Source: Escherichia coli (GTDB taxonomy: Bacteria > Pseudomonadota > Gammaproteobacteria > Enterobacterales > Enterobacteriaceae). Taken from it: DNA of 64,000 nucleotides. The stretch's first letter is position 1. Each line of letters opens with the position of its first letter. The notes beneath the pieces are model-generated. The model saw only the letters and a list, made by a program, of their open reading frames with translations. It was not told where the DNA came from and did no database searches. This document shows positions 5,672 through 34,575 of this stretch, in pieces. A program made the position numbers and the translations under genes. Location of the stretch: NCBI RefSeq assembly GCF_003991155.1, contig NZ_CP031293.1. The stretch is one strand, 5' to 3'.

Positions 5672-6049
5672 TCAAGTTTTTTCAGACAGTTGAACTAGTA
5701 TACCAATACATTCTTGTTCAGCATCAATGATACATGCTTGGTATGTCGGGAAAAAAACAGAGGTTTCTTTTACAATATATCCACAATCATAACATTGATA
5801 CCATTTCCAGCCTTTTTCCTGAATATAGGAAATATGTAGAAAAAGTGGCAAGACCGATTCGTCTGAGTATCCCTGTTTTTTAGCATTTTCAATGCATAAC
5901 AATTGCGAATTATATGCGTTATCTGATTGAGACAAAAGATATCCATTTTTCTCATGACAATACCATCTCCATTTATTGTCATCAGTCTTATAAAATTTCC
6001 ATATTAATCTCTGATTTCCAGATATCTTATAAATCATAATATACTCCAC
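5672..6049 (-). CDS. Hypothetical protein (125 aa), AT-rich; weak resemblance to DUF1508/YegP-type repeat
   Basis: Intact ORF; sequence KFYKTDDNKWRWYCHEKNGYLLSQSDNAYNSQLLCIENAKKQG loosely resembles the YegP-family motif; no function assignable. Confidence 0.4.
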   Translation of the reverse strand: MEYIMIYKISGNQRLIWKFYKTDDNKWRWYCHEKNGYLLSQSDNAYNSQLLCIENAKKQGYSDESVLPLFLHISYIQEKGWKWYQCYDCGYIVKETSVFFPTYQACIIDAEQECIGILVQLSEKT

Positions 6050-6079
6050 TCCCCAAGGAGACGGCCCTGGGGAAGGTAA

Positions 6080-7444
6080 TCAGTGTTCTTTTATATATGC
6101 GGCTCTGTGACGTTCAAGTTCAATTGCACCACGATGTGATAACCAGCAGAAAATGATGCAACAAATAATACCGCAGCCAAGAAGATAAAATCCGCCATGC
6201 CAGCCAATATGATCGACCATAATACCAAACAGGCTGGTGCCCAGAGACGCACCGAAGATATAGCTCATAAAACCGCGTAAGCCTACTGCAGAACCAACAG
6301 CAAAGCTGGGAACGATCTCCATAGTCTGAACGGAAGCCAGAAATTGTGGAACGTAAATCAGGCAACCAACAATGGCAGCAAAAATTGTCACCATAAACAG
6401 CGATTCACTTTTCCAGTAGCCAATCAGGCAAATGAAAATCAGCGCCATACAAATCATCGCCAATGGCATACGACGCCCTTTAAACAGTTTGTCTGACAAC
6501 CAACCGGCAAGTAGCGTGGAAGGGATTGCGGCCCATTCAAAAAATAAAAACGCGACGCTCATTTGTTCTTTAGAAAAATGTTTCACCGTCAGCAGATAAA
6601 TAGGCAACCAGCTAATCATCCCGAAGCGTACCATGTATACAAATACGTCAACCAGTGAGACATACCAGGCATTTTTATTGCGTAATACATAAGTGCAGAA
6701 AATCTGAAAGGCACTCATGTTTTCTGGTGCTTTTACCGTCTGTCGGGTATTCAGGACGACTTTTTCTTCCGGCATCATCTCTTCCAGAGAGGGTAGACCT
6801 TCCTGACGTGGGGAACCTTTACCGAGAATCAGCACAATTACCGCAAAAACGATGGCCACGCAGGCCGGAACGATATAGCTCGCACTTTGCCAGTGCTCGC
6901 TGCCGAGTAGGGCAAAAGCGGCACCAACAATGGGTGCAACAATACCACCACCGACGTTATGAGAGATATTCCAGAAAGCACCAACCCGACCACGCTCCCG
7001 GCGAGGGAACCAGTTAGCAATAGTGATGAAAGAAGGACCAACGCCCATTCCCTGGAAAAGACCATTCAGAATAACCAATACCGCAAAAATCCAGAATGCG
7101 GTGCTGAATCCCAGGCCAACGTTAACGATGGCACATAACACCAGCCCACACGCCATAAAGACTTTCGGACTGGCTTTATCGGCAAGGCTACTCATCACTC
7201 CTTTGCTGATACCATAGGCGATAAGCATACAGCTACTCAGTACGCCAATTTGTGTGGCGCTGAGATCTAATTGCTCTTTAAGATAAGGCGTCGATAAGGT
7301 GAAATTATTACGCACGATATAGTATGCAAGATACCCCAGAAATACACTAAGTAACGCCTGCATACGATAGCGACGATATGTCACCTGAATTTTCTCCGCC
7401 GGAACACTATCCGCCGCTTGCCCCGTTTTAAATATTGATAACAT
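6080..7444 (-). CDS. pgtP: Phosphoglycerate transporter PgtP (organophosphate:phosphate antiporter, UhpT/GlpT family)
   Basis: 454-aa ORF with 12-TM MFS features and close match to remembered Salmonella PgtP; divergent from pgtCBA. Confidence 0.85.
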   Translation of the reverse strand: MLSIFKTGQAADSVPAEKIQVTYRRYRMQALLSVFLGYLAYYIVRNNFTLSTPYLKEQLDLSATQIGVLSSCMLIAYGISKGVMSSLADKASPKVFMACGLVLCAIVNVGLGFSTAFWIFAVLVILNGLFQGMGVGPSFITIANWFPRRERGRVGAFWNISHNVGGGIVAPIVGAAFALLGSEHWQSASYIVPACVAIVFAVIVLILGKGSPRQEGLPSLEEMMPEEKVVLNTRQTVKAPENMSAFQIFCTYVLRNKNAWYVSLVDVFVYMVRFGMISWLPIYLLTVKHFSKEQMSVAFLFFEWAAIPSTLLAGWLSDKLFKGRRMPLAMICMALIFICLIGYWKSESLFMVTIFAAIVGCLIYVPQFLASVQTMEIVPSFAVGSAVGLRGFMSYIFGASLGTSLFGIMVDHIGWHGGFYLLGCGIICCIIFCWLSHRGAIELERHRAAYIKEH

Positions 7445-7535
7445 GTCTTCACCTGTATTTTATATTGATATGAACACTTGGAGTATTCTGACAATGAGAG
7501 TTATATAATTGAGATGAAACATCAAACTGAAAAAA

Positions 7536-7553
7536 TGTGTCACAATTGACACA
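7536..7553. promoter_or_regulatory. Perfect inverted repeat TGTGTCA-caat-TGACACA in the pgtP/pgtC divergent intergenic region (candidate operator)
   Basis: Read directly from sequence; 7-bp arms, 4-bp spacer. Confidence 0.3.
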
Positions 7554-7842
7554 AATTAATAAAATCAAAGCCTGTTTTTGACCCATTTTATTGATGCATA
7601 GACAGGGTAGATTTATGCTTTATCTGTTTTATTGTTAGCATGTGCGGATATTAACAAATCTCATGCTGATTATCGGGTAATCACTGATTAATATATTAAC
7701 GCTCTCTTTGAGCAGATGTGTTATCAGACGAAGTGTCTGAAACGGGTAATTTTTGTCTCAATGCGATTTTTGCGGTGTATTAATATTTATGACCTGGATC
7801 ACAAACCGATTTTTTAGCTGGTGCGAAATCGGCATCAAAACC

Positions 7843-9060
7843 ATGATTCTTTTACTGTTGTTGATGGATACCGGGGCCGTCAGGGCTCAACGAAATGAAC
7901 TGGTGATGGCCACCACATTCTCACCCGGAGCTACCGCGTGGATAATACAGCGCTGGCAAACAGAGCCTGAGTCGGTAATGATCCGTACGCTTAACCGCAC
8001 CAGTGCCTCACTGGAACAGTTGCTTGATACGGCCAACGTAGAAAACGTCGATCTGATCCTGACTTCATCACCAATGCTGCTCCAGCACCTTCAGGAGCAC
8101 CAGAAACTTGCCCCGTTTGATGATGCACCCGCAGAAAGCCAAAATCTGGTGCCGGAGTCGATCCGTGCAACCTCCGTTGCAGTAGCAATATCAGGTTTTG
8201 GTCTGCTCATTAATCGTCCGGCGCTTTCTGTAAAACACCTTCCTGCCCCTGCTGACTGGGACGATCTTGCTTTGCCGATCTATCAGGACGCTTTATTGAT
8301 GAGTAGTCCGTCGCGTTCAGATACTAACCATTTAATGGTTGAGTCATTACTACAGCAAAAAGGCTGGGTGAAAGGATGGGAAACGTTGCTGACAAGTGCA
8401 GGAAACCTGGTGACAATCTCCTCCCGCAGTTTTGGCGTAGCCGATAAAATAAAAAGCGGACTCGGCGTTGCCGGCCCCGTTATCGATAACTATGCTAATT
8501 TACTGTTAAATGACCCCCATCTCTCTTTTACCTATTTCCCCCGGTCTGCGGTATCTCCCACCTACGTTGCAATTCTCAAGAAAAGCCCACACGCCGATGC
8601 AGCCCGTCGCTTTATTCACTACCTGTTAAGTCCGAAAGGACAGCGTATTCTGGCCGATGCCAATACAGGAAAATATCCGGTGACACCACTTGCCGCAGAC
8701 AACCCGCGGGCAACGCAACAACAGCTCCTGATGAATCAACCCCCGCTGAATTATCACCTTATCCTGAAACGTCAGCGTCTGGTGCAGCGCTTGTTTGATA
8801 CGGCAATTAGCTTTCGGTTAGCACAGCTAAAAGATGCCTGGCGAGCGCTGCACAGTACCGAGGCACGCCTGAAGAAACCATTACCAGAAATACGTGCACT
8901 GTTAACACAAGTGCCCGTTGCAGCGGCCAGCAGTGAAGATCCCTTCTGGCTGGCACAGTTCGATAACAAAAGCTTTGCCGAGCAGCAAATGATGGAATGG
9001 CAACTCTGGTTTCTGAATAACCAGCGCCTGGCGATAAAAAAACTGGAAGAGCTGAAATGA
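7843..9060 (+). CDS. pgtC: PgtC, phosphoglycerate transport regulatory protein (periplasmic-binding-protein-like)
   Basis: ORF 7753..9060; likely start at internal Met 7843 before a signal-peptide-like segment (MILLLLLMDTGAVRA); stop overlaps pgtB start; start uncertain. Confidence 0.7.
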   Translation: MILLLLLMDTGAVRAQRNELVMATTFSPGATAWIIQRWQTEPESVMIRTLNRTSASLEQLLDTANVENVDLILTSSPMLLQHLQEHQKLAPFDDAPAESQNLVPESIRATSVAVAISGFGLLINRPALSVKHLPAPADWDDLALPIYQDALLMSSPSRSDTNHLMVESLLQQKGWVKGWETLLTSAGNLVTISSRSFGVADKIKSGLGVAGPVIDNYANLLLNDPHLSFTYFPRSAVSPTYVAILKKSPHADAARRFIHYLLSPKGQRILADANTGKYPVTPLAADNPRATQQQLLMNQPPLNYHLILKRQRLVQRLFDTAISFRLAQLKDAWRALHSTEARLKKPLPEIRALLTQVPVAAASSEDPFWLAQFDNKSFAEQQMMEWQLWFLNNQRLAIKKLEELK

Positions 9061-11066
9061 AAAACATAACGCTGTGGCAGCGTTTAAGACAGGTCAGTAT
9101 CAGTACCAGCTTACGTTGCGCATTTCTGATGGGGGCACTACTGACCCTGATTGTCAGTAGTGTCAGTCTGTATTCATGGCATGAACAAAGCTCACAAATT
9201 CGTTACTCGCTGGATGAGTATTTTCCCCGTATTCACTCTGCTTTCCTTATTGAAGGGAACCTGAATCTGGTGGTAGACCAGCTAAATGAATTTTTGCAGG
9301 CTCCCAACACCACGGTGCGATTGCAACTTCGTACCCAGATTATTCAGCATCTCGACACCATAGAACGGCTTAGTCGGGGGCTGTCATCCCGGGAACGCCA
9401 ACAACTGACGGTCATTTTGCAGGACAGTCGATCACTGTTATCCGAGTTGGATCGTGCGCTTTACAACATGTTTTTACTACGGGAAAAGGTGAGTGAGCTA
9501 TCAGCGAGGATTGACTGGTTACACGATGATTTTACTACCGAGCTTAATTCTTTAGTGCAGGATTTCACCTGGCAGCAGGGAACGCTGCTGGATCAAATCG
9601 CCTCCCGACAGGGCGATACGGCGCAATACCTGAAGCGATCTCGTGAAGTGCAAAATGAACAGCAGCAGGTTTATACCCTGGCACGCATTGAAAATCAGAT
9701 TGTTGACGATCTGCGTGACAGACTCAATGAACTCAAATCAGGACGTGATGACGACACACAGGTGGAAACTCATCTCCGTTATTTTGAAAATCTGAAAAAA
9801 ACGGCAGATGAAAATATACGTATGCTGGATGACTGGCCTGGCACCATTACCCTGAGGCAGACTATCGATGAATTGCTGGATATGGGAATCGTAAAAAACA
9901 AAATGCCGGATACGATGCGTGAATATGTCGCCGCCCAAAAAGCCTTAGAGGATGCCAGTCGCACCAGGGAAGCGACACTGGGTCTCTTCAGAACGTTACT
10001 GGAAGCGCAGCTTGGCAGTACTCATCAACAAATGCAGATGTTTAATCAACGAATGGAACAAATTGTTCGCGTTAGCGGTGGGCTGATCCTAGTGGCGACA
10101 GCACTGGCGTTACTGCTGGCATGGGTATTCAACCATTATTTTATCCGCTCACGGTTGGTGAAACGCTTTACCCTACTGAATCAGGCCGTTGTGCAAATTG
10201 GTCTGGGAGGCACGGAAACGACTATTCCTGTTTATGGGAATGATGAACTGGGGAGAATTGCAGGATTATTACGCCATACTCTCGGGCAGCTCAATGTGCA
10301 AAAACAGCAACTTGAACAAGAAATTACCGATCGAAAGGTGATAGAAGCCGATCTGCGTGCCGCCCAGGACGAACTGATTCAGACAGCGAAGTTGGCGGTA
10401 GTCGGGCAAACGATGACCACGCTGGCCCACGAGATCAATCAGCCGCTAAATGCGCTGTCGATGTATCTGTTTACAGCCCGCAGGGCCATTGAACAGACCC
10501 AGATAGAACAGGCCTGCATGATGCTTGGTAAAGCCGAAGGGGTGATTAGTCGCATTGACGCCATTATCCGTTCACTACGGCAGTTTACCCGGCGCGCCGA
10601 ACTGGAAATATCACTCCATGCCATTGATTTAGCAAAGATGTTCAGTGCGGCCTGGGAACTTCTGGCCATGCGTCATCGCCCTTTGCAAGCTACGCTTGTT
10701 CTGCCACAAGGTACAGCCACAGTTTCAGGCGATGAGGTCAGAACCCAGCAGGTACTGGTTAACGTACTGGCGAATGCGCTTGATGTTTGTGGGCAAGGCG
10801 CTGTCATTACCGTTAACTGGCAAATGCAGGGTAAAACGCTGAACGTATTCATTGGCGATAATGGCCCGGGCTGGCCTGAGGCATTGTTGCCTTCGTTATT
10901 GAAGCCGTTTACCACCAGTAAAGAAATAGGACTGGGTATTGGTCTTTCAATTTGTGTGTCGTTAATGGAGCAAATGAAAGGGGAATTACGGCTGGCATCA
11001 ACGATGACCAGGAATGCCTGTGTGGTACTGCAATTCAGACTAACGGATGTGGAAGATGCTAAGTAG
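9057..11066 (+). CDS. pgtB: PgtB sensor histidine kinase
   Basis: 669-aa ORF with N-terminal TM/sensor region, H-box (LAHEINQPLNAL) and ATPase G-boxes (GDNGPGW, GLGIGLS); 4-bp overlap with pgtC. Confidence 0.85.
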   Translation: MKNITLWQRLRQVSISTSLRCAFLMGALLTLIVSSVSLYSWHEQSSQIRYSLDEYFPRIHSAFLIEGNLNLVVDQLNEFLQAPNTTVRLQLRTQIIQHLDTIERLSRGLSSRERQQLTVILQDSRSLLSELDRALYNMFLLREKVSELSARIDWLHDDFTTELNSLVQDFTWQQGTLLDQIASRQGDTAQYLKRSREVQNEQQQVYTLARIENQIVDDLRDRLNELKSGRDDDTQVETHLRYFENLKKTADENIRMLDDWPGTITLRQTIDELLDMGIVKNKMPDTMREYVAAQKALEDASRTREATLGLFRTLLEAQLGSTHQQMQMFNQRMEQIVRVSGGLILVATALALLLAWVFNHYFIRSRLVKRFTLLNQAVVQIGLGGTETTIPVYGNDELGRIAGLLRHTLGQLNVQKQQLEQEITDRKVIEADLRAAQDELIQTAKLAVVGQTMTTLAHEINQPLNALSMYLFTARRAIEQTQIEQACMMLGKAEGVISRIDAIIRSLRQFTRRAELEISLHAIDLAKMFSAAWELLAMRHRPLQATLVLPQGTATVSGDEVRTQQVLVNVLANALDVCGQGAVITVNWQMQGKTLNVFIGDNGPGWPEALLPSLLKPFTTSKEIGLGIGLSICVSLMEQMKGELRLASTMTRNACVVLQFRLTDVEDAK

Positions 11067-12303
11067 TGAATATTCGATTCTGCTGATTGATGATGATGCA
11101 GATGTGCTGGACGCCTACACACAGTTACTTGAACAGTCAGGCTATCGGGTTTTTGCCTGTAACAATCCTTTTGAGGCGCAGGCGTGGATACAACCAGACT
11201 GGCCAGGCATTGTGCTAAGTGATGTGTGTATGCCTGGCTGCTCTGGTATCGATTTGATGATGTTATTCCACCAGGATGATCAACAGATCCCCATTCTGCT
11301 TATCACCGGGCACGGCGACGTGCCAATGGCAGTTGATGCGGTAAAAAAAGGCGCGTGGGATTTTTTGCAAAAACCGGTTGATCCCGGCAAATTGCTTTCT
11401 CTGGTTGAAGAGGCGCTACGCCAGCGTCAATCAATCATTGCGCGTCGTCAGTATTGCCAACAGACATTGCAGGTGGAGTTGATAGGGAGAAGTGAATGGA
11501 TAAATCAGTATCGGCGACGTTTACAGCAGTTGTCTGAGACAGATATTGCCGTCTGGCTCTACGGTGCCCCTGGCACAGGACGGATGACCGGTGCACGTTA
11601 TCTGCACCAATTTGGACGTAATGCACAAGGCGAATTTGTCTACCGCGAGCTGACACCAGACAATGCACCACAGCTTAATGATTTCATTGCGCTGGCTCAG
11701 GGGGGAACATTAGTGCTCAGCCATCCTGAACACCTGACGCGTGAACAGCAGTACCATCTGGTTCAGTTACAAAGCCAGGAACACAGACCTTTTCGCCTGA
11801 TTGGTATTGGAGACACCTCGCTGGTCGAGCTGGCCGCCAGCAACCATATCATCGCGGAGCTCTATTACTGCTTTGCAATGACACAAATCGCTTGCCTGCC
11901 ATTAACTCAACGCCCCGACGATATTGAACCACTGTTTCGCCACTACCTTTGTAAGGCATGTCAACGGCTTAACCATCCTGTTCCGGAAGTGGGAAAAGAG
12001 ATGCTCAAAGAGATGATGCGCCGCATGTGGCCAAATAATGTGCGAGAGCTGGCCAATGCAGCAGAACTGTTTACTGTAGGAATATTACCGCTGGCAGAAA
12101 CAGCAAACCCGTTGATGCACGTCGGAACCCCGGCACCGCTTGACAGGCGAGTGGAGGACGCTGAGCGACAGATAATCACAGAGGCGCTTAATATCCATCA
12201 GGGGCGTATCAATGAGGTTGCTGAATATTTACAAATCCCACGGAAAAAACTCTATCTCAGAATGAAAAAATACGGTCTTAGTAAGGAGCATTATAAAATT
12301 TAA
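11047..12303 (+). CDS. pgtA: PgtA, NtrC-family (sigma-54-dependent type) response regulator
   Basis: Receiver domain (LLIDDD...D), AAA+ central domain (GAPGTGR), C-terminal HTH; overlaps pgtB by 20 nt. Confidence 0.85.
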   Translation: MWKMLSSEYSILLIDDDADVLDAYTQLLEQSGYRVFACNNPFEAQAWIQPDWPGIVLSDVCMPGCSGIDLMMLFHQDDQQIPILLITGHGDVPMAVDAVKKGAWDFLQKPVDPGKLLSLVEEALRQRQSIIARRQYCQQTLQVELIGRSEWINQYRRRLQQLSETDIAVWLYGAPGTGRMTGARYLHQFGRNAQGEFVYRELTPDNAPQLNDFIALAQGGTLVLSHPEHLTREQQYHLVQLQSQEHRPFRLIGIGDTSLVELAASNHIIAELYYCFAMTQIACLPLTQRPDDIEPLFRHYLCKACQRLNHPVPEVGKEMLKEMMRRMWPNNVRELANAAELFTVGILPLAETANPLMHVGTPAPLDRRVEDAERQIITEALNIHQGRINEVAEYLQIPRKKLYLRMKKYGLSKEHYKI

Positions 12304-28995: not shown

Positions 28996-29062
28996 GTTTT
29001 ACAGATAATTTCTGATTTTTATTATCCTGTTCTCTTCATAATAATGTTGTCGATATACTCCG

Positions 29063-30565
29063 ATGAATATCAGAAAACTGTTTTGTCCGGGCAACACCCC
29101 CCGGATTTTATTGTTTTTATTCTTTTTTGTTGTTTCTGCAATAACCACAATTGCATGCGGATACACTGAGAAGAATGCAACAGGAAATGTGCTGCTTCTG
29201 TTTCTCCTTCTGCTCCTTGCATACAGAAATACCCTCACATCCATTACAGCGCTGTTATTTCTGTTCTGTTGTGCACTGTATGCGCCTGCCGGTATGACGT
29301 ACGGTAAAATCAACAACAGTTTTATTGTCGCGTTGTTGCAGACCACAACTGATGAGGCAGCGGAGTTTACCGGGATGATTCCTGTTTATCATTTTCTGGT
29401 CAGTGCCGCGATTCTGGTATTCATGGTGATTTTCTGGCGAACACACCACCGCGGTCACCGTAACTGGCTGGCACTGCTGCTGTTCGTATTATGCTCAGTA
29501 AACAGCTGGCCGTTGCGGATGGTTAAAGGAACTGTTGTGGGGACAACTGACACATTGCGTGAAATGCAACATTATAAACAACTGAGTCAGCACGGGGCTG
29601 ACAACTGGAAAATCCTGCCGGGAACACCGTTATATGACACAATTGTTATTGTCACTGGTGAGAGTGTGCGCAGGGATTATATGTCGGTATATGGCTATCC
29701 CGTGCCAACCACGCCGTGGCTGAATACAGCTCCCGGTTTATTTATTGACGGCTATACATCGGCAGCAGCCAGTACCGTACCTTCCCTGAGCCGGACACTG
29801 ATTTATGACTATGAGCAGAACCCTGACTCCGGCAACAACATGGTGGCGCTGGCAGCAAAAGCAGGATACAGCACATGGTGGATATCCAATCAGGGAAAGC
29901 TGGGGGAGCATGATACACGCATCTCTGTTATTGCTTCTGATGCGGAGCATACCGTTTTCCTCAAGAAAGGCAGCTTTGCTTCCCGTAAAACGGATGACAT
30001 GTTGTTGTTACAGGAAACAGAACGTGCACTGGCGGATAAATCCTCTCCGAAGGTGATATTCCTGCACATGATGGGGTCTCATCCGAACCCGTGTGACCGG
30101 CTTCACTCCTGGCCGAATCATTACCTGGAGCAGTATCCCCGAAAGGTTGCCTGTTACCTCGCCAGCATCAGTAAACTGGATAACTTTCTCGGTCAGCTTG
30201 ATGGTATCCTTCGCCGGCATTCCCGTCATTTCGTCATGCTTTACTTTTCTGACCATGGGCTGTCGGTCAGCGACAGTGCTAATCCTGTTCATCATGATGG
30301 TCATGTGCAGGGAGGCTACAGCGTTCCCCTGATTATTACCGCCAGTGACATCACGTCTCATCAGTCCGTCAGCAGAAAAATCAGTGCCCGTCATTTCGCA
30401 GGTATTTTTCAGTGGCTGACCGGCATTCGTACTGAAAATATACCGCCATTCAATCTACTGACAGACGAAGATAATGAACCCATTATGGTTTTTAACGGAG
30501 AGAGGAATGTACCGGCAGACAGTCTGAAACCGCAGCCTCTGATTCTTCCGGTCAAGGGAAAATAA
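29063..30565 (+). CDS. Sulfatase-family phosphoethanolamine transferase (EptA/YhbX/OpgE-like), 500 aa
   Basis: N-terminal multi-TM region followed by a periplasmic alkaline-phosphatase-superfamily domain (..IVIVTGESVRRDYMSVYGY.., ..HMMGSHPNP.., ..YFSDHG..). Confidence 0.7.
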   Translation: MNIRKLFCPGNTPRILLFLFFFVVSAITTIACGYTEKNATGNVLLLFLLLLLAYRNTLTSITALLFLFCCALYAPAGMTYGKINNSFIVALLQTTTDEAAEFTGMIPVYHFLVSAAILVFMVIFWRTHHRGHRNWLALLLFVLCSVNSWPLRMVKGTVVGTTDTLREMQHYKQLSQHGADNWKILPGTPLYDTIVIVTGESVRRDYMSVYGYPVPTTPWLNTAPGLFIDGYTSAAASTVPSLSRTLIYDYEQNPDSGNNMVALAAKAGYSTWWISNQGKLGEHDTRISVIASDAEHTVFLKKGSFASRKTDDMLLLQETERALADKSSPKVIFLHMMGSHPNPCDRLHSWPNHYLEQYPRKVACYLASISKLDNFLGQLDGILRRHSRHFVMLYFSDHGLSVSDSANPVHHDGHVQGGYSVPLIITASDITSHQSVSRKISARHFAGIFQWLTGIRTENIPPFNLLTDEDNEPIMVFNGERNVPADSLKPQPLILPVKGK

Positions 30566-30924
30566 GCGTAATGTTCATCACCAGATTATGTACGATGAGT
30601 TTTCCACTGTTTATAGCAATTATCTTGCTAATAACCAGACAGGAGTAACCAGACCAACCGAAAACACCGGGGAGGTGATTACCCGCTGGCAGAGGAAATC
30701 CGGTTTTTTTTGATGTCAGCCATAACGTGTTTGACAATAAAACATTATGAAAGGGTGTTAATGAGTCCATGGGATAATTCATAAAAATAATTTATTGTGT
30801 TATCCTTTTCAAAAGAAATATTCAGAAGATAACCCCTGGCTGACAACCAGGGGAAGGGGACATTAACAGTGTTATTATTGGTGGATAAATTATTACTTGT
30901 GTGCAGGATACACTAATGCAATAT

Positions 30925-31998
30925 CTACTGATACTGTATGCCAGTATGTTTCATGCCTGCCGCTGAAAACGGCAATATCCAGGGCCAGACATATTCACCA
31001 TTCATATTTCTGCATTTCTGTACAATTTTCTCAGAAAGCGTCTCATCAATTCTTTCACGCAACTTCTCCTGCTGTCTTAAAATACTTTCGCATATTTCGA
31101 AATCATCTTCCTGCATCAGCATTTCGGCGCATTTAATGATTTCTGCCCGTTCATGCAGCACAGAGGAATGATTATAGAGCCAGTTTACAAACAGCAATGC
31201 TTCCGGATATTGCCCCCATAACGGGTGGTATGTGGCATAATAATCTTCGGCAGTATCCGGACCGCCTGAAAAGTTATGCCATACAGCAAGTGGAAATGGA
31301 TGCAGATTTCCGCACAGTATTTCTGCGATGTAAGTATTTGCCGCAAAGCCGCGACGAAATGCAGTTGCAGCTTTTACCAGTTCCCCATTAAGAAAATGCA
31401 GAAGGCCGAGTTCATACCAGTAAGGTGAAAATTCATCTGCATGTTCCTGCAGTATATGGCGTGCCTGTTCATGAGCGCCAGTGCGTAACAGTTCCGGTCC
31501 CAGTAGCCAGCGTGCACCATGATTATCTTCGGGATTGTAATCCAGTATTTTTTCAATGAGCATGATGGCATCCTGATGACGCCGTAAATGTGCATTTGCC
31601 AGGATTGCCGCATAGAGGGCACGAAGAAAAGGTCGGTTGTCAGGATGTATCCAGATGATTCTGCCACTGAAACCTTCAGGGATAAGACGATTGCCAACTG
31701 CCAGTCCTTTAAGGGCAGCATTCAGCGCCTTACGCGGGGCATTCTGCTCCAGAAATACGTATGCCAAGTGAGCGTGTACATCAATAAAGTCATTCTCCTG
31801 TCGGGCAAGGCGCCTGAGTTTGTTGATGTAACTTGTTTCGCTGATTTCATCCGCATCGTATGCATCAATCAGTTCTTCAAACTCATCCAGCAACGAGCCA
31901 AACCAGGTTTCCGGAAATATGAAACAGCCCTGGTTATCGTTCACTTCAAAGCGTAATTTGCCAGTCATATTCTGAACCTGTAAAAAAGGATGGACCAT
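30925..31998 (-). CDS. Hypothetical protein (357 aa), predicted all-helical/TPR-like; start may be Met 31968
   Basis: Long intact ORF adjacent to the integrase; no family recognised. Confidence 0.5.
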   Translation of the reverse strand: MVHPFLQVQNMTGKLRFEVNDNQGCFIFPETWFGSLLDEFEELIDAYDADEISETSYINKLRRLARQENDFIDVHAHLAYVFLEQNAPRKALNAALKGLAVGNRLIPEGFSGRIIWIHPDNRPFLRALYAAILANAHLRRHQDAIMLIEKILDYNPEDNHGARWLLGPELLRTGAHEQARHILQEHADEFSPYWYELGLLHFLNGELVKAATAFRRGFAANTYIAEILCGNLHPFPLAVWHNFSGGPDTAEDYYATYHPLWGQYPEALLFVNWLYNHSSVLHERAEIIKCAEMLMQEDDFEICESILRQQEKLRERIDETLSEKIVQKCRNMNGEYVWPWILPFSAAGMKHTGIQYQ

Positions 31999-32223: not shown

Positions 32224-33489
32224 TCACCTTTTCAGTGGATTGTTAACTTTTGCATATTCAAACGGACTGATACCCTTATCTCTGTTTGCATCCAGAAAAT
32301 CTGCCCACCATTGCAGCATAAGCCGACGTTCTTCCAGATGTTCTGCTTTATGAATATACGCGGCACGTACTCCGTTGCGCTCCTGATGACTCATCTGACG
32401 TTCAACCGCATCTCTTGACCATAAACCGGATTCAATCAATGCACTGCACGCCATCGCCCGGAATCCATGGCCACAGACTTCCTTGGTTGTGTCATACCCC
32501 ATCACTCTGAGGGCCTTATTTACGGTATTTTCACTGATTGGTTTACGCGGGTCATGTGCTCCCGTAAAGATCAGACCATTTTCACCAGCCCATGTCTGAA
32601 GTTCTGTCAGTATGGCTACAGCCTGTTTGCTGAGTGGCACAAGATGTGGTGTTCGCATCTTGGAGCCCCGGTGTGAGAATTTTACCCCTGGCAGAGGTTT
32701 GCGTTCGGCTGGAATAGTCCACATGGCATTGTCAATATCAATTTCAGACCAGCGGGCGTATCTGAGTTCACTGGAACGAATAAAAACCAGTAAATTCAGC
32801 ATAACGGCAAGCCGGGTGACAGGCTGACCTTTATAACTGTTAATACGCGACAGAAGTTCAGGCAGACGTGAAAGATCAAGAGCGGGGCGATGCTGGCGTT
32901 TTACCGTAGTCAATGCGCCAGCCATATCCAGAGCAGGATTATATCTGATGATGCCAGACTGTACGGCATAACGCATTACGGCAGATATTCTTTGCTGCAG
33001 ACGACTGGCGATTTCATAAATTTGTTTAGCTTCTGCAGCACGAACAGGGATAAGCAGATCCGGGGTATTGAGTGTTGTGATATCCCGGTTGCCGATAAAG
33101 GGGAAAACGTGTGTTTCGAGGCTTTTGAGTACTTTATCGCTGTGTGATTGTGCCCATTGTTTATTACTGGCATGCCAGCGTCGTGCAATATGTTCAAAAG
33201 AGAGCTGTAAATCAGGGACTACTTTTTTAGCTCTTTTCTGTTCGCAAGGGTCAATCCCCTCCGAAATCAGTTTTCGGGCCTCATCCCGTTTTGTACGAGC
33301 TTCGGAGAGAGAAACTTCTGGATACACACCAAGTGCCAGAGTCTTCTCCTTACCCAGAATACGATAACGGAGACGCCAGTAACGGGAACCATTAGGATGT
33401 ACCAGCAGGAACATGCCAGCCCCGTCAGTGAGTTTATAAGCCTTGTCAGTGGGCTTTGCAGCCCGGATTTTTGCGTCAGTCAGTGCCAT
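32224..33489 (-). CDS. P4-type (CP4-57-like) tyrosine integrase
   Basis: 421-aa ORF MALTDAKIRAAKPTDKAYKLTDGAGMFLLVHPNGSRYWRLRYR... with C-terminal catalytic region; immediately downstream of tRNA-Phe in the same orientation. Confidence 0.92.
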   Translation of the reverse strand: MALTDAKIRAAKPTDKAYKLTDGAGMFLLVHPNGSRYWRLRYRILGKEKTLALGVYPEVSLSEARTKRDEARKLISEGIDPCEQKRAKKVVPDLQLSFEHIARRWHASNKQWAQSHSDKVLKSLETHVFPFIGNRDITTLNTPDLLIPVRAAEAKQIYEIASRLQQRISAVMRYAVQSGIIRYNPALDMAGALTTVKRQHRPALDLSRLPELLSRINSYKGQPVTRLAVMLNLLVFIRSSELRYARWSEIDIDNAMWTIPAERKPLPGVKFSHRGSKMRTPHLVPLSKQAVAILTELQTWAGENGLIFTGAHDPRKPISENTVNKALRVMGYDTTKEVCGHGFRAMACSALIESGLWSRDAVERQMSHQERNGVRAAYIHKAEHLEERRLMLQWWADFLDANRDKGISPFEYAKVNNPLKR

Positions 33490-33686: not shown

Positions 33687-33762
33687 TGGTGCCCGGACTC
33701 GGAATCGAACCAAGGACACGGGGATTTTCAATCCCCTGCTCTACCGACTGAGCTATCCGGGC
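33687..33762 (-). tRNA. pheV: tRNA-Phe (GAA anticodon), 76 nt including CCA
   Basis: Reverse complement reads GCCCGGATAGCTCAGTCGGTAGAGCAGGGGATTGAAAATCCCCGTGTCCTTGGTTCGATTCCGAGTCCGGGCACCA; locus assigned as pheV from flanking yqgA/speC. Confidence 0.95.
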
Positions 33763-33867: not shown

Positions 33868-34575
33868 TCAGGCAAACCAGGCGGTCCAGGCGGCGGAAAG
33901 CGGCATTGCCAGAAGGAGTGCTGGAAGCATGTTGACCACCGGGAACATTTTAATGCCACAGATGCGTAATCCGGTTGCCAGCAGCAATAAACCGCCTACG
34001 GCGCTGAAGTCTGCCATCATCGACGGTGTGGTCAGCGGTAATATCAGCGCGGCAGCCCACGCCAGTGTTAACTGGATGATCAGTAATGGAATGCTAATCA
34101 CCGACACCGCAATACCCAGCGAGCAGGCGAAGATCATCGCCGTAAAGAAATCAAGAAATGACTTGGCGATTAAAATACTCGGATCGCCGGTCATCCCTTC
34201 GTTCATCGCCCCGAAGATTCCGGTGCCGCTGGCGCAAAACAGGACAATAATCGCGACAAAATTCTGAATAAAAGATTCATGCGCTGGCTTCTTACGCGAG
34301 TGGTGAAACAGATTATGCGCTTTGGCGACCACTGTATTGACGCCTTTTTCCAGCAGACAAATTTCGCCGATTAATGCTCCGAGTAAGGTTGCTAAAACCA
34401 TCGCCGGAAGGTTGGCGCATTTCACCACCAGTAAAATACCAATCCCCAGCGATGCCAGACCAAAAATTGATGTCATGGAGACGCGGATACGTTCCGGTAA
34501 GCGTTGGCTAAGGAGTGCGCCGAAAACGCCACCCAGTAAGACTGCACTTGCGTTGATAAAAGGGCCGATGACCAC
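33868..34575 (-). CDS. yqgA: YqgA, DUF554 inner-membrane protein
   Basis: 235-aa hydrophobic ORF; synteny with the K-12 pheV region. Confidence 0.85.

Follow-up and report, generated by a model that had tools for sequence, protein, structure and literature searches.

OpgE (YbiP), the closest characterised relative of the enzyme analysed here, has been shown to put phosphoethanolamine (PEtN) on osmoregulated periplasmic glucans (OPGs); its gene also stands alone, and both proteins are alike in size and topology (PMC3818809). Its homologues PtdA and PtdB of Haemophilus ducreyi, a bacterium with no OPGs, do not modify lipid A, yet they influence surface charge and resistance to defensins (PMC4406763). 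Enzymes of the OpgE type can have other targets, since these two proteins act where OPGs do not exist. A precedent for serotype conversion by PEtN is given by Lpt-O/Opt of Shigella flexneri (PMC3458804). As regards accessory copies in Escherichia coli, a survey of genomic islands published in 2018 used the name YjgX for those located at pheU, pheV and selC (PMC6174562). That survey aside, the yjgX of K-12 appears in the literature only as a neutral integration site or as a false-positive control, and this literature is uninformative because the K-12 copy is a pseudogene. In the literature search, no biochemical data were found on any member of the YjgX clade.

Here we describe an intact gene of this kind in a stretch of 64,000 nucleotides of E. 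coli DNA (the window, in what follows). We consider it likely that it codes for a functional inner-membrane PEtN transferase of the YjgX clade, an accessory sister of OpgE, for which a glycan would be a likelier acceptor than lipid A.

The yjgX-type gene and its pheV island

The features of the region, with their positions in the window, are the following.

28141..28881, + strand: Hra-family (Hek/Hra1/Hes/Tia-like) outer-membrane beta-barrel gene, a putative assignment; present in the ORF list and in PGAP as 'outer membrane protein' WP_001045028.1
28959..28983, no strand: GC-rich hairpin with a 10-bp stem and T-runs on both strands, terminator-like, between the outer-membrane protein gene and the transferase gene
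28998..29025, + strand: sigma-70-like promoter match TTTACA-16-TATTAT, 10 of 12 positions of the consensus, the best of the region, 38 bp upstream of the ATG
29063..30565, + strand: YjgX-type phosphoethanolamine transferase CDS, from the ORF list, an identical PGAP CDS, Pfam/NCBIfam matches and dN/dS
29063..29593, + strand: N-terminal helical membrane domain (about aa 1-177), from PF08019, hydrophobic segments, AlphaFold2 helices and Foldseek
29639..30400, + strand: periplasmic catalytic domain of sulfatase/alkaline-phosphatase type (aa 193-446), from PF00884, PDB/Foldseek matches and invariant columns
30552-30782, - strand: 76-aa ORF, hypothetical protein WP_001335175.1 (PGAP), antisense to the transferase gene and sharing 14 bp with its 3' end
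30925..31998, - strand: gene of a TPR-like hypothetical protein, flanked by the integrase and transferase genes (ORF list, PGAP)
32224..33489, - strand: P4-type tyrosine integrase gene (NCBIfam NF007246, 5e-75; PGAP)
33687..33762, - strand: tRNA-Phe (pheV), integration site of the island (ARAGORN, annotation)
33868-34575, - strand: yqgA, just beyond tRNA-Phe (annotation)

The transferase ORF starts with ATG and codes for 500 amino acids followed by a stop. The identical ORF is called by PGAP as WP_059337646.1, 'phosphoethanolamine transferase', in E. coli FDAARGOS_1284, whose sequence shows 100% identity to the window between 24000 and 36000. An earlier sequence-only reading of this DNA had proposed the same ORF, which is borne out by the identical CDS and by a Pfam match far beyond chance. 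No second transferase copy was found in the whole 64-kb window. In K-12 derivatives, 79% of the query aligns, at 91% nucleotide identity, with a locus annotated as 'phosphoethanolamine transferase; frameshifted; internal stop; missing N-terminus'. Given this closeness at the DNA level to yjgX and a position beside the integrase gene of a tRNA site, the window gene belongs to the YjgX group, and by sequence comparison the ORF corresponds to the K-12 pseudogene yjgX in its intact form. Other intact E. coli alleles present 92-98% DNA identity and are also int-proximal, at pheV and pheU.

From the attachment site, the island carries tRNA-Phe, the P4-type integrase gene, the gene of the TPR protein, the transferase gene, the Hra-family outer-membrane protein gene and the pap operon. 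The integration site is pheV, because yqgA marks it. That the enzyme is island-borne, as the same reading had claimed, agrees with the tRNA-Phe located 3.1 kb from the transferase gene, with the integrase gene, with yqgA and with a lower GC content (0.40-0.47 across 27-33 kb and 0.44-0.47 around the gene, vs 0.50-0.55 for the core genes on the right-hand side). No distal att repeat of the island was found in the window. Leftward of the outer-membrane protein gene, the island contains a gene for a hypothetical protein of 122 aa, a frameshifted GTPase remnant, papX, a complete pap operon with papG-III, an IS66 and a pgtABCP cluster. The latter, a phosphoglycerate transport cluster of Salmonella type (pgtP, pgtC, pgtB, pgtA), occupies approximately 6080-12300 of the window, in the same pheV island and upstream of the IS66 copy and the pap operon. 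This arrangement fits that of the LAA island, in which the Hra-family gene hes is found 3.3 kb from the pheV integrase gene (PMC5539235).

Some of the neighbouring genes deserve a comment of their own. The TPR-like protein (WP_000147021.1, 347-357 aa) is present in some pheV/pheU islands and absent from others (two of the islands examined were without it), and it gave no informative family match (NCBIfam far below cut-off; none in PADLOC or PHROGs). The 76-aa ORF is frameshifted in strain RM10809-3, and may be a spurious call. The frameshifted GTP-binding protein remnant and the 122-aa hypothetical gene (at about 26446-26830 and 27555-27923) lie upstream of the outer-membrane protein gene; the remnant presumably resembles YeeP, as in CP4-type islands. 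In Salmonella, an intact GTPase gene directly precedes the pair formed by the outer-membrane protein and transferase genes, and a DUF932 gene follows it. Since the pair is flanked in this way, its position suggests that it occupies the cargo slot of flu (Ag43) in CP4-44-type elements.

With regard to transcription, the terminator-like hairpin and the promoter-like site lie between the outer-membrane protein gene and the ATG of the transferase gene, which suggests that the latter is a transcription unit of its own. No clear Shine-Dalgarno sequence was seen before this ATG. Regulation through a PmrA box, as for eptA and cptA, was rejected: there is no match near the transferase gene, and the matches found across the window are at chance level.

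The outer-membrane protein gene and the transferase gene stay paired in the E. coli alleles examined. In Salmonella, the transferase of the pair is 57% and the outer-membrane protein 52% identical to those of the window, and in the 6.6-kb E. coli plasmid CP088763 the values are 43% and 59%, the last over a retained fragment. The putative Hra-family assignment follows the description given in PMC5539235 rather than reference Hek/Hra1 sequences. According to that work, Hra-family proteins work alone in HB101. In other species, several transferase homologues are found without the outer-membrane protein neighbour or without the integrase gene. An obligate two-gene module was therefore rejected, in view of the separating hairpin and promoter-like site, of the homologues that lack the neighbour and of the autonomy of Hra proteins (PMC5539235). 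The co-inheritance is real, and the Hra-family gene is a frequent, non-obligatory partner of the transferase gene. A loose echo of this adjacency is seen in K-12, where the core gene opgE (9674-11821 of the extracted locus, ompX included) is convergent to, and directly beside, ompX, another gene for a small outer-membrane beta-barrel; the resemblance is probably coincidental.

Fold, catalytic residues and relatives

The protein presents the two domains expected for a membrane PEtN transferase. The Pfam Sulfatase family (PF00884) matches aa 193-446 with 2.2e-37, and EptA_B_N (PF08019) gives a weaker match, 8.8e-5, over aa 44-172. The membrane domain contains four hydrophobic segments and cytoplasmic loops rich in K/R. 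In the AlphaFold2 model, which was built on the alignment of 48 homologues (mean pLDDT 89, helices around 90; pTM 0.82), the predicted helices are 14-31, 39-54, 57-80, 108-127, 135-146 and 149-177, the last one being a long linker helix that is followed by an alpha/beta domain. When this model was compared with the PDB by Foldseek, the catalytic domain of EcEptC came first (6a82, 8e-18), and next were full-length MCR-1 (9nww) and NmEptA (5fgn), aligned over about 550 columns. By sequence, the best solved structure is also an EptC (5zzu, 6e-18).

The catalytic Thr and the metal ligands, whose loss would have spoken against the family, are all in place. When eight sequences were aligned with MAFFT (the query, OpgE, YhbX, EptC, EptB, EptA and two homologues from plasmids), a set that includes all six E. 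coli paralogues, the few invariant columns were G199-E200, T238, H335, H340 and D397-H398, and E200, T238, H335, H340, D397 and H398 are also invariant across the 48 homologues. These residues belong to the motifs GES (E200), SDHG (D397-H398) and LHxxGSH (H335/H340), and T238 falls on the final Thr of the 'CGTST' motif in MCR-1, the phospho-accepting nucleophile T285. In addition, E98, located in the membrane domain in the periplasmic loop/helix segment 'TTDEAAEF', is invariant in the alignment of 48 homologues, and the pair C344/C364 is conserved in at least 90% of them. The sulfatase-fold domain, the multi-helix N-terminus, the Thr nucleophile and the Glu/Asp-His/His set of metal ligands are the features of the membrane PEtN transferase family (YhjW/YjdB/YijP/YbiP; EptA, EptB, EptC, OpgE, MCR). 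On these sequence features, the ORF encodes a protein of this family, with PEtN transfer as its predicted activity, and the family proposed in the sequence-only reading is supported as essentially correct.

The same reading had separated the enzyme from the chromosomal set eptA/eptB/eptC/opgE, and in pairwise BLASTP the identity to the K-12 paralogues is indeed only 21-32%:

OpgE: 30% identity over 513 columns, full length, 9e-75
YhbX: 32% identity, catalytic domain only, 5e-27
EptC: 24% identity over 523 columns, 3e-24
EptB: 23% identity over 268 columns, 1e-11
EptA: 21% identity over 237 columns, catalytic domain only, 2e-7

All NCBIfam models remained far below their curated cut-offs. The best one was CptA, with 107 bits vs a cut-off of 404; the EptA models gave 37.6 and 58.3 bits vs 660 and 561, and those of MCR-3, -4, -5, -8, -10 and -13 only 17-34 bits vs 1075-1250, so that the EptA/MCR family score is not reached.

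These values bear on the comparison with plasmid-borne MCR proteins that had been drawn from the sequence. The superfamily and its catalytic residues are common to both, and the protein is shorter than EptA/MCR, as had been noted (by about 40-50 aa); the analogy with MCR and colistin resistance is weak, with MCR/EptA models at 17-38 bits vs curated cut-offs of 660-1250. If the enzyme were a lipid A PEtN transferase of MCR/EptA type, it would lower the susceptibility to polymyxins or antimicrobial peptides, and the common fold, together with the diverged homologues carried by plasmids (e.g. pO104_H7, 52% identity), would fit such a role. We find it very improbable: the identity to EptA is 21% and limited to the catalytic domain, the gene lacks an upstream PmrA box, and it is present in more than half of the complete E. 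coli genomes. Furthermore, we know of no colistin-resistance phenotype linked to a yjgX-type gene, which also counts against this reading, as does the fact that the OpgE-like PtdA and PtdB do not modify lipid A (PMC4406763).

In a neighbour-joining tree of 85 sequences, the query belongs to a YjgX clade, which has the OpgE clade as its sister and is not nested inside it; YhbX branches next, and EptC, EptB and EptA are outside the OpgE/YjgX/YhbX group. The YjgX clade includes the E. coli alleles, the Salmonella homologue (57% identity, a full-length ORF), the 52% homologue of STEC plasmids such as pO104_H7, chromosomal genes of Erwinia, Pantoea and Enterobacter lignolyticus (38-50% identity) and, more distantly, members in Aquitalea, Acinetobacter and Snodgrassella. 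One homologue reaches 66% identity. As to the plasmid-borne relatives, that of pO104_H7 is located near espP on large STEC IncF/IncI plasmids (5920-7455 of the extracted locus), and pYLPM7d, a mobilisable E. coli plasmid of 4,088 bp, carries a 31%-identical relative at 870-2402 of the record.

The true opgE is found elsewhere as a core gene, in 5420 of the 5426 complete E. coli genomes at no less than 95% identity; therefore, the window gene is an extra paralogue and not a displaced opgE. With 30% identity and a position in a sister clade, it is not an orthologue of E. coli OpgE. A second OpgE, one that would put PEtN on OPGs and duplicate or boost the core enzyme, is nevertheless plausible, though in our view less likely than not. 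OpgE is the nearest characterised relative and aligns over its full length, the length and the topology of 4-5 helices are similar (PMC3818809), and automated pipelines, as well as the authors of a genome-wide association study (GWAS), label the gene 'putative opgE' (PMC8946752). Against this are the separate clade and the low identity, the near-universal presence of opgE, in view of which a redundant copy under purifying selection needs some other rationale, and the other targets that OpgE homologues reach in bacteria without OPGs (PMC4406763).

Two further origins or roles were rejected. A part in an anti-phage defence system was dismissed because PADLOC gave no match for the transferase or for the four neighbouring proteins. 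A phage-borne conversion gene was discarded because no phage record with a close or full-length homologue was found; the matches in the phage collection were limited to weak, CptA-like ones, most of them to records that are bacterial or unannotated, and PHROGs gave only two families, both of unknown function.

Distribution, selection and predicted acceptor

Of the 5426 complete E. coli genomes, 2973 carry the transferase gene; one genome may have it at as many as five sites, and nearly all copies are chromosomal. The order tRNA-int-(TPR)-transferase-outer-membrane protein recurs at pheV and pheU, with entirely different cargo after it from island to island, which may be sfa/foc fimbriae, ato genes, a TerB/helicase cluster or other fimbriae. 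In the island with sfa/foc fimbriae (strain WGS1363), the transferase gene is split by an IS1. Among the carriers, only 1450 retain at least 80% of the gene, i.e. nearly its full length. Considering this frequent decay, of which the K-12 pseudogene and the IS1 insertion of WGS1363 are further cases, the gene is dispensable in many backgrounds.

Where it is intact, the gene is under purifying selection, with dN/dS values of 0.11-0.19 at dS 0.11-0.23 among four intact E. coli alleles. This selection argues against a decaying passenger, that is, an intact-looking but unexpressed ORF with no current function in the host strain. Pseudogenisation is certainly frequent across E. coli, the ribosome-binding site is weak or absent, and deletion of the K-12 remnant gave no antimicrobial-peptide phenotype (PMC4808223), but that copy was already a pseudogene. 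The catalytic residues are all kept, an ORF of full length is retained as far away as Salmonella (57% identity), and a promoter-like site lies upstream; the chance that the gene is such a passenger seems to us slim.

For a functional transferase of the YjgX clade, our preferred reading, we infer activity, lipid donor and acceptor by analogy with the family. YjgX-type genes are carried near the integrase end of E. coli islands associated with tRNA genes. As in other members of the family, the helical membrane domain of the product would take phosphatidylethanolamine from the outer leaflet of the inner membrane, and the Zn-dependent periplasmic domain would move PEtN onto Thr238, with formation of a covalent intermediate and release of diacylglycerol. 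The PEtN would then be passed to a hydroxyl or phosphate of the acceptor on the periplasmic side. This acceptor is most likely a periplasmic or envelope glycan, whether OPGs or a sugar of the LPS core, O-antigen or ECA, in preference to the phosphates of lipid A, and with a non-lipid-A acceptor no MCR-like colistin resistance would be expected. An autonomous enzyme fits the data, because homologues occur in other species without the outer-membrane protein gene or the integrase gene. It should be noted that the sequence-only reading held that the substrate could not be inferred. Having OpgE as the nearest characterised relative narrows that statement, but by sequence the 30% identity and the separate clade do not fix the acceptor.

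The gene cannot be called unrecognised, since it is already annotated, named and reported in island surveys and in a GWAS; its annotation, its name and its island context are already known. In that study of bloodstream infections, published in 2022, unitigs mapping to the gene associate with a urinary portal of entry (PMC8946752). The yjgX-type gene is physically linked to pap, LAA-type and other pathogenicity islands. As a more speculative view, to which we give little credence, YjgX-type enzymes could be conversion-like modifiers of the surface, carried in the attachment-site arm of P4-integrase islands, and could contribute in their own right to the urinary-tract association that is credited to the linked pap. 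They may in this respect be analogous to the O-antigen modification genes found beside int in serotype-converting phages, and the PEtN may be placed on a non-lipid-A structure, such as the LPS core/O-antigen, ECA or the surroundings of the Hra-family adhesin that is inherited together with the transferase. If so, changes would follow in charge, adhesion, resistance to serum or antimicrobial peptides, or phage adsorption. Knowing the acceptor would tell whether the GWAS signal reflects linkage to pap and nothing else, and would close a genuine, if modest, gap in what has been catalogued of envelope modifications in E. coli.

Comparison with described transferases and with yjgX of K-12

The gene is not a new kind of system, and the data argue against a hidden MCR-like determinant of colistin resistance. 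The yjgX of K-12 (b4575), which is associated with leuX in KpLE2, adjoins a P4-type integrase gene at a tRNA gene, like the window gene; however, it is N-terminally truncated, frameshifted and flanked by IS2, whereas the window copy is intact and located at pheV. Lpt-O/Opt of S. flexneri, an O-antigen PEtN transferase of 506 aa encoded on pSFxv_2 (PMC3458804), resembles the YjgX enzyme in being borne by a mobile element, in its length of about 500 aa and in its sulfatase-superfamily domain. As the closest analogue it was rejected despite this similar size and mobile carriage, because there is no detectable similarity between both proteins (BLASTP E 0.33); PGAP places Lpt-O in the LTA-synthase branch.

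Among the enzymes that do share detectable similarity, EptA/MCR-1 (5fgn, 9nww) has the same two-domain architecture, aligned over the full length, and the same catalytic Glu, Thr, Asp and His, but the identity is 21%, the family cut-offs are not reached and the YjgX enzyme is shorter. EptC/CptA (5zzu, 6a82), the PEtN transferase of heptose-I phosphate, is the best structure match by both sequence and fold and the best NCBIfam model; nevertheless, at 24% identity it scores below the CptA cut-off and lies outside the OpgE/YjgX/YhbX group in the tree. The closest parallel is with OpgE, similar to the YjgX enzyme in length (527 vs 500 aa), in topology (4-5 helices), in its single-gene organisation and in the C344/C364 pair. 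Both differ in that they form separate clades, and in that opgE is a core gene, whereas the window gene is accessory, multi-copy and island-borne.
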